Shown: positions 11,257-17,468 of the stretch, piece by piece
How the letters are laid out: the number at the start of each line of letters is the position of its first letter
How positions within the stretch are numbered: position 1 is the stretch's first letter
IMG/VR virus record: IMGVR_UViG_2671180885_000005
DNA from: a virus
Taxonomy: Duplodnaviria > Heunggongvirae > Uroviricota > Caudoviricetes
Strand: one strand, 5' to 3'
DNA: 46,052 nucleotides
The notes under the pieces: generated by a model
What the model was told of the DNA's origin: nothing
Database searches by the model: none
Seen by the model: the letters and a program-made list of their open reading frames with translations, nothing else
Position numbers and translations under genes: made by a program

Positions 11257-11418
11257 CGGAATTGAGCAACACCCTAAATTTGGGTATTACCTCGTTAAAG
11301 ATACTGTATTTATGAACAGTGTATCCTTGATAACTATTAAAAATCGCAGTAAGTTCATCCTGCATCAACGAAAAGGGAGTGCAGTCCCGCTCGTGGATAA
11401 AAATTTGTGGAGAAACCA

Positions 11419-12234
11419 ATGAATCAGTTGCTTGTAATTGATGGCGTTTCTGTGCGCCAGTACTTCGAATCTAACTACTGTCTTAACGACCTTCAGAAAG
11501 CTGCTCTTCTTGCCGCTGGTGAGAATCGCTCCTCCCGTTCGCTGGAAGTTCACGAGTTTATGCGTCGTCCTGAAACGAAGGCTCTTGTGGAATTATTGGA
11601 AGAAGAAACTACGGGAGATTCCCGTAGTATTCCTGTCATCACCATTCAGGGGCGCAATGGTGGGACGTATGTCTGTAAAGAGCTGGTCTATGCATATGCA
11701 ATGTGGATCAGCCCGGCATTCAGCTTAAAAGTGATACGTACTTTTGATGCGCTTCATAATTCATCACCAGAAGAAACCACATCCGACAAAATTAAATCCG
11801 GGGTCATTCTGCTTGAATCAGCAGCAAAGACTCTAAATCTGTCAAACTCCTCGAAACTTGGTGCATACCAGAAATTATCAAAGGTAGCTGGTCTTCCTGA
11901 ACTTATGCCGATCTATGCCATTGATGCACCTGCTGATGCGCCAGATGGTTCAAGCCGCCCTACGCTGTCGCTGAGTGCACTGCTGAAGCAGTATGGTATC
12001 CGCCTGACGGCTAATCAGGCATATCACCAGATGGCGAAGCTGGGGATCGTTGAACAACGCGAACGATACAGCCGTACCGCAATTAACAACATTAAAAAAT
12101 TCTGGTCGCTGACGGCGAAAGGCTGCATGTTCGGCAAGAATATCACCAGTCCCGCAAATCCACGTGAGACGCAGCCGCATTTCTTCGAATCCCGATTCCC
12201 TGAGCTGTTAAAGCTGCTCGATACCGTTCATTGA
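11419..12234 (+). CDS. KilA-N domain protein
   Basis: ATG at 11419 after GGAGA; segment GTYVCKELVYAYAMWISPAFSLKVIRTFD matches the KilA-N domain signature. Confidence 0.7.
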   Translation: MNQLLVIDGVSVRQYFESNYCLNDLQKAALLAAGENRSSRSLEVHEFMRRPETKALVELLEEETTGDSRSIPVITIQGRNGGTYVCKELVYAYAMWISPAFSLKVIRTFDALHNSSPEETTSDKIKSGVILLESAAKTLNLSNSSKLGAYQKLSKVAGLPELMPIYAIDAPADAPDGSSRPTLSLSALLKQYGIRLTANQAYHQMAKLGIVEQRERYSRTAINNIKKFWSLTAKGCMFGKNITSPANPRETQPHFFESRFPELLKLLDTVH

Positions 12235-12235
12235 G

Positions 12236-13231
12236 GTGACCGTGAGAGCACTACTGACCCCTGAAATTGCCCCGCGTATGGGGATCGTATTGTTCAGGCC
12301 AGGTTCAGAGCTGATGCCCCTGTTTATGCAGGGGCGAGTCCTGCTGGAGCCTGAGCCGGAACGTTATTCATCTTTCGCCAGTGGTGCCGTTCCGGCGGCA
12401 TCACAACCGCTGGCGGATGATCCTGCCGTTCGGGCCGTGTTCCGCAATGAGGCAGTGATCCGTCGTGCTGGTGGCGTGGAATGTCTTGAAAGCTGGTTAC
12501 TTCGTGAAAAAGGCTGCCAGTGGCCTCATTCCGACTGGCACAGCGAGAACATGACCACAATGCGACACGTGCCGGGCGCAATCCGTCTGTGCTGGCACTG
12601 CGATAACCAGATGCGCGATCAGTTCACGGAACGGCTGGAATCAATGGCAACGGATAACTGTGCCCGCTGGGTGTTGTCTGTTGTGCGTCGGGATCTCGGT
12701 TTTGATGACAGTCACGTTGTGACAATGCCGGAACTGTGCTGGTGGCTGATTCGTAATGATCTGGCGGATGCCTTACCGGAAAGTGCAGCCCGTAAGGCAC
12801 TGAGATTACCGAAGCCTGTTGTGCCGTCTGTTACCCGGGAAAGTGACCTTGTGCCTTCGGTTCCTGCCACCAGCATCATCCTGGATAAGGCGAAAAAGGT
12901 GCTGGCGCTGAAAGTGGATCCGGAGTCGCCGGAGTCTTTTATGTTACGCCCCAAACGTCGCCGCTGGGTTAATGAAAAGTACACGCGCTGGGTTAAGACA
13001 CAGCCGTGTGCATGTTGTGGAAGGCCCGCTGATGATCCCCATCACCTGATAGGTTACGGTCAGGGTGGAATGGGAACAAAAGCGCATGACCTTTTTGTGT
13101 TGCCTTTGTGCAGAAAGCATCACGACGAGCTGCATGCGGATACCGTGGCATTTGAAGAGAAGTATGGCTCCCAACTGGAGCTGATATTTCGTTTTATCGA
13201 TCGCGCGCTGGCGATTGGTGTGTTGGCCTGA
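12236..13231 (+). CDS. DUF968-family protein (YdfU-like) with C-terminal Cys/His motif
   Basis: 331-aa ORF (GTG start); C-terminal CACCGRPADDPHH...CRKHHDELH resembles the DUF968/HNH-like region of Qin-prophage YdfU. Confidence 0.65.
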   Translation: MTVRALLTPEIAPRMGIVLFRPGSELMPLFMQGRVLLEPEPERYSSFASGAVPAASQPLADDPAVRAVFRNEAVIRRAGGVECLESWLLREKGCQWPHSDWHSENMTTMRHVPGAIRLCWHCDNQMRDQFTERLESMATDNCARWVLSVVRRDLGFDDSHVVTMPELCWWLIRNDLADALPESAARKALRLPKPVVPSVTRESDLVPSVPATSIILDKAKKVLALKVDPESPESFMLRPKRRRWVNEKYTRWVKTQPCACCGRPADDPHHLIGYGQGGMGTKAHDLFVLPLCRKHHDELHADTVAFEEKYGSQLELIFRFIDRALAIGVLA

Positions 13232-13248
13232 TTTGGTGGAGAAAGTTG

Positions 13249-13614
13249 ATGCGTGATATTCAGATGGTTCTGGAGCGTTGGGGAGCATGGGCGGCGAGTG
13301 ATAGTTCTGGAGTAGACTATTCGCCTATAGCTGCTGGGTTTAAGGGGCTTCTTCCCTACACAAGCAAAACACGTCAGGCTTGTTCAGATAGTGATGCATT
13401 AATTATTGAAGGTTGTCTTGCTCGTCTAAAGCAAAAAAAGCCAGATGAGCACTCGCTGCTTGTGGCACATTATTTATACAGAATATCCAAGCGTAAGATT
13501 GCAAAGGTGCGTGGAAAGGATGAAAAATTGGTACGCATAGAAATACAACTAGCCGAAGGATTTATTGATGGTTGCCTTTCAATGTTGGATGTTAACCTTG
13601 AAATGGACGCTTAG
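13249..13614 (+). CDS. late-gene antiterminator Q (QuuD-type)
   Basis: N-terminus MRDIQMVLERWGAWAA... matches my recollection of DLP12 QuuD and related Q proteins; GGAGA SD before the ATG at 13249. Confidence 0.8.
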   Translation: MRDIQMVLERWGAWAASDSSGVDYSPIAAGFKGLLPYTSKTRQACSDSDALIIEGCLARLKQKKPDEHSLLVAHYLYRISKRKIAKVRGKDEKLVRIEIQLAEGFIDGCLSMLDVNLEMDA

Positions 13615-13620
13615 GGTTGC

Positions 13621-13650
13621 ACAGGTTGGCCCCATATGAGGCCAACCTGT
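13621..13650. promoter_or_regulatory. perfect 11-bp-stem hairpin (ACAGGTTGGCC / GGCCAACCTGT, 8-nt loop)
   Basis: Seen directly; lies between the Q stop and the stop of the convergent minus-strand membrane-protein gene, with no adjacent U-tract on either strand. Confidence 0.4.
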
Positions 13651-14099
13651 CACAAGTGGGGGAAGATTTTTCGTAACACTAACCAACACCTTCCGAAGGT
13701 ATATAGCGAAATTATAAGGGAGGATAAGCCTAACAGTATGAATAGGAAATCAATAGGTTTGCCCGCAACAATAACATCATCAGGTAGAAACATCGCTATC
13801 AATGGAAATATACATGCGACGATGAGAGTTAACCCTGTTGAAAGTAATCTATTTACCAGAGTTGGTAACACGTTGTTTTGCTTAAGGGCATTAATTGCTC
13901 CTTCCTTATCGCTGTTTGCACTACTAAATATAGATATTGCAGCCAGAACAAAACCAAACAGGATGCCTGATATAGTCGAGAGCACCCCCGCTGTTGTGAG
14001 TACGTCAGCATGCTTCATCGGTTTAAACAGTTTTGTCGCTGCATAGGTCAACAGAATCCAGAGGACGCATTTCCAGAGAAAAGTGGCTAATTCTCTCAT
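13650..14099 (-). CDS. small polytopic membrane protein (about four predicted TM helices), cargo gene 2
   Basis: Start taken at the ATG at 14099 with GGAGG 5 nt upstream; four hydrophobic stretches (FLWKCVLWILLTYAATKLF; VLTTAGVLSTISGILFGFVLAAISIF; STGLTLIVACIFPLIAMFL; IDFLFILLGLSSLIISLYTF); 21 bp after the stop of the upstream gene. Confidence 0.6.
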   Translation of the reverse strand: MRELATFLWKCVLWILLTYAATKLFKPMKHADVLTTAGVLSTISGILFGFVLAAISIFSSANSDKEGAINALKQNNVLPTLVNRLLSTGLTLIVACIFPLIAMFLPDDVIVAGKPIDFLFILLGLSSLIISLYTFGRCWLVLRKIFPHL

Positions 14100-14120
14100 T
14101 GTGTCCTCCATGCTTGGTTA

Positions 14121-15062
14121 TTAGTCTCTGCTAGCGAGCTCATACTGTGCAAGATAGTTCGCGTTATCAATTTTAGCAGATATCATCGCCGTTCTGATAT
14201 CAGAATCGGATGGATAACCGCTTTTGACAATGATTGTCTTTGTACTGACCAATACTTGGTCAAGTAGACTTTTGGGCGTTCTATTGGATGGCTCTGTTAC
14301 ATCAATTTTTTTAATTTTTAGACCTCCAGAACCTTTTGGAAAAAGTTCAAGTAGTTCCTTAATAGCATCGGTGACAGAAGTTTTTAGATAGTTAAACCCT
14401 TGTTTTTTCGGGCGAATCCGACCTCGCATATTTAATCTTAGATGCGACCCGCCCATACCAACAACCATGTCAATAATTTCATTAGCTAAAGGGTTTTTAA
14501 TCTTATAATTAGCTTTGTTAAAGTTTCTTGGAGCAGCAACTATAAGATCGAAACTACGTAGGATATTTCCGTCCTCAAGCAGTTCCTTCATGCTCTCTTG
14601 TTTCCAAATGGCTTCAAAAGTGACGCTTTTTAAATCAGTTTTGTTATACAAAATGAATGCCAGATCATTTACTTTGGGCCCTATATGGTTGAGGGTCATA
14701 GCTAATAAGTCCGTTTCGTAGTAATAGATAAAATATGTTCTTTCAACTACAGAATCTTTATCATTTAAAGGAATTGTTCTCTCACTACCTGTAGCATCCT
14801 CGATGAACGGTAGTAGGCATTCCCTTCTCCACGATACGTAACCAAAGTAACATTGCAGTGTGGTATCTTTTTGAAGAATAACTAACTTTAACCCTCGATT
14901 TGGGGTGTATGTTGTGTAAGTTATTGGAAAAGTTACAGTATCTGCTGTGGTCATTTGCTCAAAGGCTAGTTTTGCAGCAGATGTGCCATCTTTTTTGCTT
15001 CCATTACCAGTGAAAAAACCAACTCTCACTCGCCTGGTTTTATTCTTATTTTCTGTACTCAT
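14121..15062 (-). CDS. hypothetical soluble protein (313 aa), cargo gene 1
   Basis: Long AT-rich ORF antisense to the phage late genes, in the Q–holin moron position; no family recognised by eye. Confidence 0.6.
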   Translation of the reverse strand: MSTENKNKTRRVRVGFFTGNGSKKDGTSAAKLAFEQMTTADTVTFPITYTTYTPNRGLKLVILQKDTTLQCYFGYVSWRRECLLPFIEDATGSERTIPLNDKDSVVERTYFIYYYETDLLAMTLNHIGPKVNDLAFILYNKTDLKSVTFEAIWKQESMKELLEDGNILRSFDLIVAAPRNFNKANYKIKNPLANEIIDMVVGMGGSHLRLNMRGRIRPKKQGFNYLKTSVTDAIKELLELFPKGSGGLKIKKIDVTEPSNRTPKSLLDQVLVSTKTIIVKSGYPSDSDIRTAMISAKIDNANYLAQYELASRD

Positions 15063-15184
15063 TATCGATCCGAAATAATTTTAGCAACCGTGTGAAAAAT
15101 ACAACAAAAAAAAGAGGAAATCATTAGCGCGGTCCGCAAAAAACATTGTAATCTGTTAAGAGTGGTTACTTCGCCACACAGCTT

Positions 15185-15215
15185 AAACCCGCCGTCGAGC
15201 GGGTTTTGTCGTTTC
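15185..15215 (+). terminator. candidate tR'-like intrinsic terminator upstream of the lysis cassette
   Basis: Hairpin AAACCCGC-CGTCGA-GCGGGTTT followed by TGTCGTTTCTG (U-rich) on the plus strand. Confidence 0.45.
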
Positions 15216-15358
15216 TGTGGCTGGGGATTCGTTGGTCTTGGCCTATTCCGCAGTTCTCCATCGGTTCGGCTTCTTTGATGTTTCCGCTTCTGATTTGCGG
15301 TACATGATGTTCCCTCAATTTGCACCTGCTGTATCAGCGAGGTGAGAGATAACTACAA

Positions 15359-15685
15359 ATGCCTCATAACCCAAATACCTGGCTGGAGTTGGTCCAGAGC
15401 TGGTGGCGTGGAGACACACCGCTGGGCGCAGTGATTATGTCGATCGTTATGGCTGGCTTGCGCATTGCCTATTTTGGCGGTGGTGGTGGCTGGAAACGAA
15501 AAACGCTCGAGATTTTGCTCTGTGGTGCTCTGACGCTGACTTTTGCATCCGCTCTTGAGTATGTCGGATGGCCTAAATCTCTTTCTGTTGCCATTGGTGG
15601 CGGCGTTGGGCTGATCGGGGTCGATGCTATTCGTGGGGCTGCAATGAGAGTAATCGGTAATAAGTTTGGTGGCTCTAAGGAGTAA
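15359..15685 (+). CDS. holin
   Basis: 108-aa protein with hydrophobic TM segments, immediately upstream of endolysin R; SD GAGGTGAGAG. Confidence 0.8.
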   Translation: MPHNPNTWLELVQSWWRGDTPLGAVIMSIVMAGLRIAYFGGGGGWKRKTLEILLCGALTLTFASALEYVGWPKSLSVAIGGGVGLIGVDAIRGAAMRVIGNKFGGSKE

Positions 15686-15688
15686 TTT

Positions 15689-16171
15689 ATGCAGGTACTA
15701 AATTCCCAGCGTAAAGCTTTCCTCGATATGGTGGCATGGTCAGAAGGAACGGATAACGGGCGACAACCGACACGTAACCACGGTTATGACGTTATTGTCG
15801 GAGGTGAACTGTTCACTGATTACTCCGATCACCCTCGCAAACTTGTCACGCTAAACCCGAAACTTAAATCAACAGCCGCAGGACGTTATCAGCTTCTTTC
15901 ACGCTGGTGGGATGCTTACCGTAAGCAGCTTGGGCTGAAAGACTTCTCTCCAAAAAGCCAGGATGCTGTGGCATTGCAGCAGATTAAAGAGCGTGGTGCT
16001 TTACCGATGATTGATCGCGGCGATATCCGTCAGGCTATTGATCGTTGCAGCAATATCTGGGCGTCATTGCCGGGCGCTGGTTATGGTCAGTTCGAACATA
16101 AGGTTGACAGCCTGATTGAAAAATTCAAAGAATCGGGCGGAACGGTCAGAGAAATTCAGCTATATGAGTAG
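15689..16171 (+). CDS. R: endolysin (lambda R-type lytic transglycosylase)
   Basis: Near-identity to my recollection of lambda R ([58 protein letters not shown]...). Confidence 0.95.
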
Positions 16172-16628
16172 AGTAACTGCGATTCTGTCCTCTCTGGTTA
16201 TCTGCATCATCGTCTGCCTATCATGGGCTGTTAATCATTATCGTGATAACGCCATCGCCTACAAAGAACAGCGCGATAAAGCGAAGGAAAAACTCAGCCA
16301 GGCGAACGCCACCATTACTGAGATGCAGCAGCGCCAGCGTGATGTTTCTGCGCTCGATGCGAAATACACCGGAGAACTTGCAAATGCTAAAGCAACTATT
16401 GAACAGCTTCAGCGTGATGTTGCTGTTGGCACTAAGCGGCTGTTCCTCGCCGCTAGTTGCCCGAGAGTGCAATCAACGACCATTACCACCAGCCTGGATG
16501 ATGCTACCGCCCCCCGACTTACTGACACCGCTCAACGGGATTATTTCACCCTCAGAGAGAGAATTGAAATCAGTTATAAACAGATAAGAGCATTGCAGGA
16601 CTATATCTCTAGTCAGTGTGAAAACTAA
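16164..16628 (+). CDS. Rz: i-spanin Rz
   Basis: [31 protein letters not shown]... closely resembles lambda Rz; start overlaps the R stop. Confidence 0.9.
16384..16587 (+). CDS. Rz1: o-spanin Rz1 (lipoprotein, embedded in Rz in the +1 frame)
   Basis: [20 protein letters not shown]... (lipobox LSGC) then proline-rich [26 protein letters not shown], as in lambda Rz1. Confidence 0.8.
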
Positions 16629-16709
16629 AATTGCTTTCGATGTATGGATCTGGACATCTTTTTTTTCTACTATGCTGACTGAGAATTGAAACGTATATGG
16701 ATATTCTAT

Positions 16710-17468
16710 ATGAAAAGAAAAAAATTAGAAGGTCCCGGGTGTGAATCATATGAAGGGTTAGATGTTGAATATTATATTGATTCCGAAACGGGGGAATTTA
16801 AAGCGGTTTATACATTCAATAATGAAATTGTAGATCGCATAAAATTGAGTGGGCGTATTGCCGATAGAGCATCTTCACTGTCCCTAATTCATAGGGACTT
16901 AAAAAGTGCTAAAGAGTGGTACCAAATAGCTAATGAACTGGCAGGGAGAAACGAATTAAGGACAGATGGCAAGTTATACGGGAATATACTTGATCTAGAT
17001 TTATCAAGTGAAATTAGAGCGTTATTTGTGGCAAGCCTAACGTTTTATGGTAAAGCTTTCTCTGAAACTAAAGGGAGAAAGTTAAAGATGGAGCGTGATT
17101 GGCTTGATTCTGAATATTTTGGGTTGCATGACTGTATTATTAACTACAGGCATAATTTTGCAGCACATAGCGGCAACCAAGACTATGAGTCAGCAGAAAC
17201 TTCATTGTTACTAATAAGGAAAAATGGGAAAACATTTTATCAAGCAGTGACAGATAGAAAACAACTGAGCATGATTGGTGTCGAGGACGAGCATGTTGAT
17301 ATGATTAATTTATTTGAACATGCGATACAGGTTGTTGAGAAAAAATATAATGAAACATTAGAGAGAATTAGAACCTATGTCATGCAAAAGAGTTATTCTT
17401 TTTGGTGTTTAGCTGCCACAGGGAAAGATCCCGTCAATTTAGATAAGTTAAATAAGAAGAAAAAATAA
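16710..17468 (+). CDS. hypothetical AT-rich accessory (moron) protein, ~252 aa
   Basis: ORF after the lysis cassette and before the packaging genes, with composition visibly more AT-rich than flanking phage genes; start uncertain (TTG 16686 or ATG 16710). Confidence 0.5.
   Translation: MKRKKLEGPGCESYEGLDVEYYIDSETGEFKAVYTFNNEIVDRIKLSGRIADRASSLSLIHRDLKSAKEWYQIANELAGRNELRTDGKLYGNILDLDLSSEIRALFVASLTFYGKAFSETKGRKLKMERDWLDSEYFGLHDCIINYRHNFAAHSGNQDYESAETSLLLIRKNGKTFYQAVTDRKQLSMIGVEDEHVDMINLFEHAIQVVEKKYNETLERIRTYVMQKSYSFWCLAATGKDPVNLDKLNKKKK

Follow-up and report, generated by a model that had tools for sequence, protein, structure and literature searches.

Introduction

In lambda and phage 21, the late promoter pR' lies next to the gene for the antiterminator Q, which is its canonical position. 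In the GenBank annotation of phage 21 (OL657228), from which our reference layout was taken (Q21 structures are in Protein Data Bank entries 6P18-6P1C), a -35 element lies 7 nucleotides (nt) after the Q stop codon and is followed by a 16-bp Q-binding element (QBE) in the promoter spacer, a -10 element, the transcription start site (TSS), a pause element at +2, and a terminator that ends about 50 nt after the start. A geometry in which other genes separate Q from its promoter is already known from the DLP12 prophage (with nmpC), phage 434B, and related phages. Here we describe the late control region of IMG/VR virus record IMGVR_UViG_2671180885_000005, a stretch of 46,052 nt (below, 'the window') that represents an Escherichia coli lambdoid prophage. 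In it, a two-gene cassette on the opposite strand stands between Q and the lysis genes, and a block at 15106-15215 is very probably the late-gene control unit of the prophage: a promoter with a dyad in its spacer as the Q-binding element, a start at about 15161, and a terminator about 50 nt further on, with Q acting in trans. Because the geometry was known, the window is a further case of a described arrangement. The promoter anatomy, the pairing of dyads with Q clades, and a putative antisense defence hotspot with its Rex-like cassette are by-products of moderate interest.

Like phage 21, the window has a Q of family PF06530 and a candidate binding element in the promoter spacer; its predicted transcript is likewise about 50 nt long, and the late genes directly follow an intrinsic terminator. 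Unlike phage 21, its Q is of the QuuD type and only distant kin of Q21 (phmmer against the Q21 chains 6p18/6jnx, E 0.002), its candidate element is a 9-bp dyad plus an A-tract rather than two 8-bp direct repeats, its -35 element is poor, no pause element can be recognized at +2, and the unit lies 1.5 kb from Q rather than 7 nt. DLP12 and phage 434B share with the window the Q family, the block, and the antisense cargo between them; a start site is known for DLP12 at the base homologous to that of the window, and 434B, a viable phage, functions with this module. DLP12 differs in its Q clade and dyad (TACGTACGTA), in its cargo, which is a porin gene with IS5 rather than a two-gene cassette, and in its type of holin. 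SfII and cdtI show the same succession of Q, two-gene antisense cassette, block, and late genes, and the DNA from block to holin in SfII is 95.5% identical to that of the window. SfII, however, has another Q clade, the dyad GCGTACGC, and a cassette that is the PADLOC candidate PDC-M53, whereas cdtI has extra sense-strand genes after the terminator.

A conserved block between Q and the lysis genes

At least 80% of 13200-15700 is present in 73 complete E. coli genomes, with the best matches at about 99% identity. The Q gene occupies an open reading frame (ORF) on the plus strand at 13246-13614, with an ATG at 13249, and encodes 121 residues that match Pfam family Phage_antitermQ (PF06530) over its full length (E 7.7e-52). 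The order proposed in a sequence-only reading of this DNA, with Q ending at 13614, a hairpin at 15185-15215, the holin starting at 15359, and cargo on the opposite strand between Q and holin, is correct in all its coordinates. That reading preferred to place the late promoter and qut site within 15063-15184; comparative and published experimental evidence supports this placement, and the region can be narrowed to a unit of about 15106-15215 that includes the terminator tR', with a predicted start at 15161.

The comparative evidence begins with the spacing of the conserved parts. Megablast against phage records gave split matches, in which Q and a short segment ending at window position 15207 lie only about 520 bp apart. 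When four phages were aligned, a block of about 90 bp was almost invariant and its flanks had diverged. In PhiR49_2 and the Stx2a phage Stx2_EH2201, this block begins at the Q stop codon; it is followed in the former by a sense-strand methylase, tRNAs, and holin, and in the latter by a methylase, tRNAs, and stx2AB. In cdtI and SfII, a two-gene antisense cassette separates Q from the block. A 28-mer located just upstream of the hairpin has a single copy in the window and is absent from all 100 shuffled sequences, and an exact search for it in IMG/VR returned 120 loci. Wherever these loci extended far enough, a PF06530-type Q was found upstream. The distance from the Q stop codon to the 28-mer is 28-45 nt in 26 loci, and in the others comprises 526-3781 nt of unrelated DNA; 25 IMG/VR loci are counted as cargo-free beside PhiR49_2 and Stx2_EH2201. 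Among 5,426 complete E. coli genomes, 2,464 contain matches to a 96-bp promoter-terminator segment (15120-15215), 2,844 matches in all, and in the listed RefSeq matches it carries no annotated feature. The block fixes the start of late transcription in a very common, unannotated class of E. coli prophages, and some Stx2a phages use it upstream of stx2.

Within the block, a pR'-type late promoter with a candidate Q-binding element can be read on the plus strand at 15106-15160, corresponding to the sequence that abuts the Q stop codon in relatives that lack cargo. It comprises an A-rich upstream tract (15106-15120), a weak -35-like TTAGCG (15124-15129), the dyad GCGGTCCGC (15129-15137) followed by six A residues (15138-15143), and a -10 element TAATCT (15149-15154) that overlaps an alternative TGTAAT (15147-15152). 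The predicted start, A 15161, opens a highly conserved initial transcribed region, AGTGGTTACTTCGCCACACAGC (15161-15182, plus strand), which we presume to be a Q-loading or pause region. In full, the window carries TTAGCG CGGTCCGC AAAAAA ... TAATCT GTTAAGAGTGGTTACTTCGCCACACAGC and then the hairpin. No second copy of the block or of the dyad is present anywhere in the window.

Variation among relatives is consistent with this anatomy. Across 99 unique variants, a TAnnnT hexamer is held at a fixed distance, with A at -11 and T at -7 in all 99 and T at -12 in 84, and the other three positions vary freely; from its sequence, we read this pattern as the signature of a sigma-70 -10 element. Upstream of it, an A-rich tract occupies -46 to -41 and the dyad -32 to -24; position -23 is always A, and a tract of A or T fills -22 to -19. 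The region from +1 to +17 is near-invariant across Q clades, but positions +1 to +13 belonged to the search pattern (a 19-nt core from -6 to +13), so that conservation there arises partly by construction. A sample selected through Q instead gave a similar picture. Among 77 loci with sequence downstream of Q, 73 have the same dyad (one-base variants allowed) together with the core, two (L145 and L147), whose core is slightly different, carry the GCACGGTCCGC form of the dyad, and two (L148 and L201) are without a recognizable block.

The spacer dyad follows the Q clade

Clustering of the Q proteins from 111 non-identical loci at 30% distance gave four clades. The type of dyad in the promoter spacer tracks the clade in all 111 loci, across 30 insert types and whatever lies between Q and the block. 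The dyad GCGGTCCGC, including one-base variants, is concordant in 78/78 loci, and GCGTACGC in 28/28; a third type, TACG(A/T)(T/A)CGTA (for example TACGNNCGTA) or TACAATCGTA, is concordant in 4/4, and GGAATTCC in the single locus that has it (1/1). Each of the two large clades has 11-15 unrelated inserts between Q and dyad. In the alignment of Q proteins, the N-terminal half is conserved across clades, and a helix-turn-helix region at about residues 70-100 is specific to each clade. Downstream sequence types are common to several clades, which argues that recombination around the unit is frequent, yet Q and dyad stay matched. Since the dyad changes with the Q clade regardless of the intervening DNA, comparison of these sequences points to it as the likely Q-binding element of the promoter spacer. 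The four Q clades and four dyads provide a testable specificity code for DNA recognition by antiterminators of the Q21 superfamily.

A start site in K-12 and action at a distance

The DLP12 prophage of E. coli K-12 has the order quuD, antisense nmpC::IS5, block (with one mismatch in the 28-mer), and essD. To relate its two coordinate systems, we take the offset from U00096.2 to NC_000913.3 to be 777, a value that agrees with the positions of lacZ and ompT. A plus-strand TSS at U00096.2 576452 is listed in the Cappable-seq table of Ettwiller et al. (PMC4782308, supplement file 1). This corresponds to NC_000913.3 577229, an A exactly 7 nt past the conserved hexamer, the very base at which a -10 element in that position would put the start, and the homologous base in the window is 15161. 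Between U00096.2 573560, which is 2 nt short of the last base of quuD, and 573619, the same table has no plus-strand start. It also contains a strong plus-strand start, with a score of 90, at U00096.2 576081 (about 4359 in our DLP12 locus L125; NC_000913.3 about 576858), a short way upstream of the point where nmpC, on the other strand, has its start codon, and about 370 nt before the DLP12 late start. Supplements of a Term-seq study (PMC7815308) and a SMRT-Cappable-seq study (PMC6131387) have no entry for essD or nearby coordinates, and a paper on pausing by RNET-seq does not mention prophage promoters.

Function across inserted cargo has also been documented. In the plaque-forming phage 434B, a DLP12 segment of about 5.5 kb supplies Q, late promoter, and lysis genes, and nmpC::IS5 separates its Q from the block. 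The DLP12 lysis operon is described as being under the control of a Q-type antiterminator (PMC7918800, citing Rueggeberg 2013). Both points are indirect evidence for the proposed Q-dependent read-through of the terminator.

Terminator and predicted short transcript

The hairpin with U-tract at 15185-15215, which the sequence-only reading had put forward as a tR'-like terminator, is borne out by its folding, its rank in a consensus scan, and its retention in relatives. On the plus strand it has a AAACCCGC/GCGGGTTT stem with a 6-nt loop and the tail UUUUGUCGUUUC, which makes it a G+C-rich stem-loop directly before a U-rich tract, as in rho-independent terminators. In the scan, its stem at 15185-15206 (8 pairs, 5 of them G-C, loop 6, followed by TGTCGTTTCT) was the strongest of 7 terminator-like sites in 12500-16500, where shuffled sequences gave 3.9 +/- 2.0. 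Its RNA folds at -12 kcal/mol (z -2.8). A hairpin followed by a T-run is kept in related loci, ending mostly 42-55 nt past the inferred start, even though some of the stems are unrelated in sequence. In the window, the hairpin and U-tract lie at +25 to +55, and the predicted terminated transcript is about 48-55 nt. In one IMG/VR relative (L198), a deletion of about 16 nt brings the 3' terminator half up against the initial transcribed region (GTTAAGAGTGGTTACTTCGCCCGCGAGCGGGTTTTTTT), and from its sequence this deletion may weaken termination.

Short RNAs that start at a late promoter and end at tR' without Q have been described in other phages, as in StxS and the 6S RNA of lambda. StxS was considered as the RNA predicted here and rejected, as it comes from a different type of pR'; it is 247 nt long and processed to 74 nt, unlike the RNA of about 50 nt predicted for the window, and its pR' sequence is different. 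An Rfam search of 13000-16000 found no family at E values up to 1. The first part of the predicted RNA (15161-15177) can pair GUGGU with GCCAC to form a 5' hairpin. In one relative, a double compensatory change has replaced a G-C pair of this hairpin by A-U, and in variants a C at +7 is accompanied by A or G at +14, which permits a shifted stem. Covariation within this hairpin (+2 to +17) is not significant, with 72 of 500 shuffles reaching the observed level, and we therefore make no claim of RNA structure for it.

Proposed mechanism and alternative explanations

These observations suggest a model for late gene expression. Without Q, the promoter would yield only the short terminated RNA. After induction, Q would be made from 13249-13614 and act in trans, binding the dyad and loading onto RNA polymerase held near the promoter. 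The Q-loaded polymerase would then cross 15185-15215 and transcribe the late operon, beginning with the genes for holin, endolysin, and spanin. On this model, the ancestral arrangement has the control unit starting at the Q stop codon, and a low-GC two-gene cassette of 1.5 kb has here been inserted between that stop codon and the promoter. The cassette points against the direction of late transcription, its promoter side adjoining pR' and its hairpin end adjoining Q, and therefore lies outside the late transcription unit.

Several points weigh against this model. The dyad is palindromic, whereas the QBE of Q21 is a direct repeat. Concordance between Q and dyad could partly reflect simple linkage; no insert type is common to two Q clades among the 111 loci, and cargo for this reason does not separate function from linkage. 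A consensus sigma-70 scan called no promoter in 15063-15184, and the promoter was found only through comparison with relatives. The -35-like TTAGCG matches at 3 of 6 positions, with a spacer of 19 bp to TAATCT or 17 bp to TGTAAT. No canonical sigma-dependent pause element (nAnnnT) is present in +1 to +25, where the only candidates are AAGAGT (-3 to +3) and TACTTC (+7 to +12); the region is nevertheless near-invariant. Finally, the K-12 start was measured in a relative with a different dyad (TACGTACGTA), and its score is low, at 1.7, which reportedly sits just above the cut-off of that study. A score this low is compatible with a weak promoter, or with an RNA that is terminated while still very short.

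Among the alternatives, the one that survives best is that the block is a promoter-terminator pair for a small regulatory RNA, or an insulator, rather than a site of Q action, and that transcription of the late genes comes from elsewhere, either as read-through out of the early operon or from a different promoter. Short transcripts from pR' to tR' can act in trans as small RNAs, as StxS does (PMC7547250), the transcribed region from +1 to +22 is more conserved than the promoter, and a clear pause element is lacking. Against this stand the perfect agreement of the spacer dyad with the Q clade, and the position of the block, which always has a PF06530 Q gene on one side and, on the other, lysis or late genes (in an Stx2a phage, stx2). 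Its layout equals that of pR' in phage 21, and covariation in the 5' hairpin, as described above, is not significant. A role as a small RNA would in any case supplement control by Q and not replace it, and we consider this explanation quite unlikely.

It has also to be asked whether the pairing of Q and pR' was broken by cargo insertion or by decay, leaving the lysis genes to be driven by the host. DLP12 has the same geometry and is a cryptic prophage, and control of its lysis cassette by RpoE has been proposed (PMC7918800, citing Rueggeberg 2015). In the window, however, Q, the block, and the lysis genes are intact, with about 99% identity in 73 E. coli genomes, and the dyad is of the type that goes with this Q clade. 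The DLP12 module allows phage 434B to grow, and the arrangement recurs with more than 24 different inserts, which speaks for its being tolerated and functional. A broken module is thus very unlikely here.

The remaining alternative, which the sequence-only reading had kept beside its preferred one, is a late promoter next to Q at 13615-13650 from which Q-modified polymerase reads antisense through the cargo, with 15185-15215 as one overridden terminator; such a position would be canonical and a polymerase of this kind could in principle traverse 1.7 kb, but it is extremely improbable, because only 6 nt separate the Q stop codon from a hairpin at 13621-13648, the window has no second block or dyad, the sequence that abuts Q in empty-site relatives is the 15106-15215 block itself, K-12 has no listed start at the corresponding place, and the Q-proximal DNA differs with each cassette.

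The gap between Q and pR' as a site for cargo

With control by the 15106-15215 unit as the preferred explanation, the space between Q and pR' can be viewed as a site for cargo genes. Inserts of the loci selected through the 28-mer fall into at least 24 unrelated DNA clusters. In 23 of 24 insert clusters, the main ORFs are all antisense to Q and the late genes, and the GC (guanine plus cytosine) content is 0.29-0.42. PADLOC identified within the gap Kiwa (KwaA and KwaB), PD-Lambda-1 (the sole case in sense orientation), and a HEC-04-like ATPase with a cytosine methyltransferase, together with the candidate systems PDC-M53 (the SfII cassette), PDC-S20, PDC-S33, PDC-S42, PDC-S60, and PDC-M68A. 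One further cluster consists of a porin of the NmpC/Lc type, as judged from its sequence and the parallel in DLP12. The gap is easy to recognize and already holds Kiwa, PD-Lambda-1, and candidate systems, which makes it a practical hunting ground for new defence systems.

In the window, GC content drops to 0.36-0.42 across the cargo, compared with 0.50-0.58 in the flanks. Two genes on the minus strand were taken from the ORF list: cargo gene 1, for a soluble protein of 313 residues (14121-15062), and cargo gene 2, for a membrane protein of 153 residues (13650-14111). The region upstream of this operon, 15063-15105, contains a minus-strand TAAAAT hexamer (15083-15078) when read from the sequence, and the cargo's own promoter is presumed to lie there, back-to-back with pR'. 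The consensus scan called no cargo promoter in 15063-15105.

At the other end of the cassette, a stem-loop with a perfect 13-bp stem (13621-13648) fits between the convergent stop codons of Q and the cargo membrane protein. Its folding energy is -27.1 kcal/mol as minus-strand RNA (z -5.3) and -21.4 on the plus strand, and a U-tract is present on neither strand. Its probable role is to mark or stabilize the cargo transcript at its 3' end. As the stem is not followed by a U-tract on the plus strand, it is conceivable that after induction the early Q transcript extends beyond 13614 and enters the cargo in antisense orientation. Every cassette has its own hairpin at the end close to Q, found at about 2413-2440 in cdtI (locus L002) and about 1870-1900 in DLP12 (L125). 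The cdtI hairpin stands between an A-run and a T-run, in the form of a two-way terminator. A-runs flank both sides of the DLP12 hairpin, which can therefore terminate only the nmpC strand.

A RexA-like fold in the two-gene cassette

The cassette in the window has no PADLOC match. It belongs to the same protein family as the cassette of cdtI, with 45% identity for the 313-residue protein and 50% for its partner. The larger cdtI protein matches PF20505 (DUF6731) at 1.7e-10. The 313-residue protein itself has no PF20505 match even at an E value of 10 and is thus best described as a divergent relative of DUF6731 proteins, given its homologues that carry this domain, and not as a member at the level of the model. 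Its AlphaFold model (predicted local distance difference test score, pLDDT, 73.5) has a fold like that of lambda RexA.

The 153-residue protein matches no Pfam or PADLOC family above threshold and has 82 homologues in Enterobacterales. These are 149 residues long, and the true start of the ORF is therefore probably the Met at 14099. Its AlphaFold2 model (pLDDT 83.6) has helices at 2-28, 34-64, 81-108, and 120-149. Weak matches in the BFVD database include a 165-residue protein (E 0.028) from Sbash, a mycobacteriophage that has a Rex-like system, and RexB has been described with four transmembrane helices. The gene order, with a soluble protein followed after a 9-nt gap by a partner modelled with four long helices, corresponds to such a pair. 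The best BFVD matches of both cargo proteins (A0A8S5S8H0 and A0A8S5S8L2) come from one uncultured phage, Siphoviridae sp. ctylc9, indicating that the soluble and membrane proteins travel together and are conserved far outside the phages of Enterobacterales.

Sequence homology to RexA and RexB was considered and rejected. BLASTP against the lambda proteins was not significant, hhalign gave a probability below 1% for both, and PADLOC made no Rex match; moreover, the cassette stands in the gap between Q and pR' rather than beside cI. As there is no similarity at the level of sequence, we call the cassette Rex-like in architecture and fold, and not a member of the Rex family. On the strength of its modelled structures, it is a candidate defence system.

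Taken with the other inserts, this allows a broader suggestion, which we regard as possible rather than probable. In QuuD-type lambdoid phages (~45% of complete E. coli genomes), the gap may be an orientation-locked defence hotspot in which Q and its cognate block serve as anchors for the swapping of cassettes. Such cassettes would lie outside the late transcript and antisense to early read-through, and hence be expressed in the lysogen and damped during lysis. The cassette of the window would then be a previously unrecognized abortive-infection system of RexAB-like kind.

Features downstream and upstream of the control unit

Downstream of the terminator, a leader at 15216-15358 (plus strand) leads to the holin gene; the window is 95.5% identical to SfII from 15125 onward. 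A second recombination junction directly follows the T-run of the terminator, at window position 15208-15225 and at the homologous point in loci L001, L002, and L207. At this site, three alternative downstream sequence types are common to different Q clades. In cdtI, PhiR49_2, and Stx2_EH2201, it holds cargo on the plus strand, consisting of a methylase, tRNAs (tRNA-Met/Arg/Arg), or stx2AB, and being on the sense strand this cargo belongs to the late transcript.

The lysis cassette at 15359-16628, on the plus strand, comprises what would be the first Q-dependent late genes. The holin gene (15359-15685; PF05106, E 5.7e-25) starts 144 nt downstream of the terminator, and RefSeq annotation of identical prophages names it as a lambda-family holin. 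It is followed by an endolysin gene (15689-16171), annotated in the same prophages as glycoside hydrolase family 24/104, and by an Rz-like spanin region extending to 16628, as judged from synteny with the S-R-Rz-Rz1 order of SfII. Directly after the spanin genes, an ORF of 260 residues on the plus strand (16686-17468) coincides with a second GC trough (0.35-0.38). Neither Pfam nor PADLOC gives a match for this ORF, which looks like another moron or defence candidate on the strand of the late transcript.

Two genes directly precede Q, one for a protein with a KilA-N domain (11407-12234), the other for a DUF968/YdfU protein that has an HNH-like motif (12236-13231). The pairing of YdfU with Q recurs in PhiR49_2, SfII, cdtI, and Stx2a phages.

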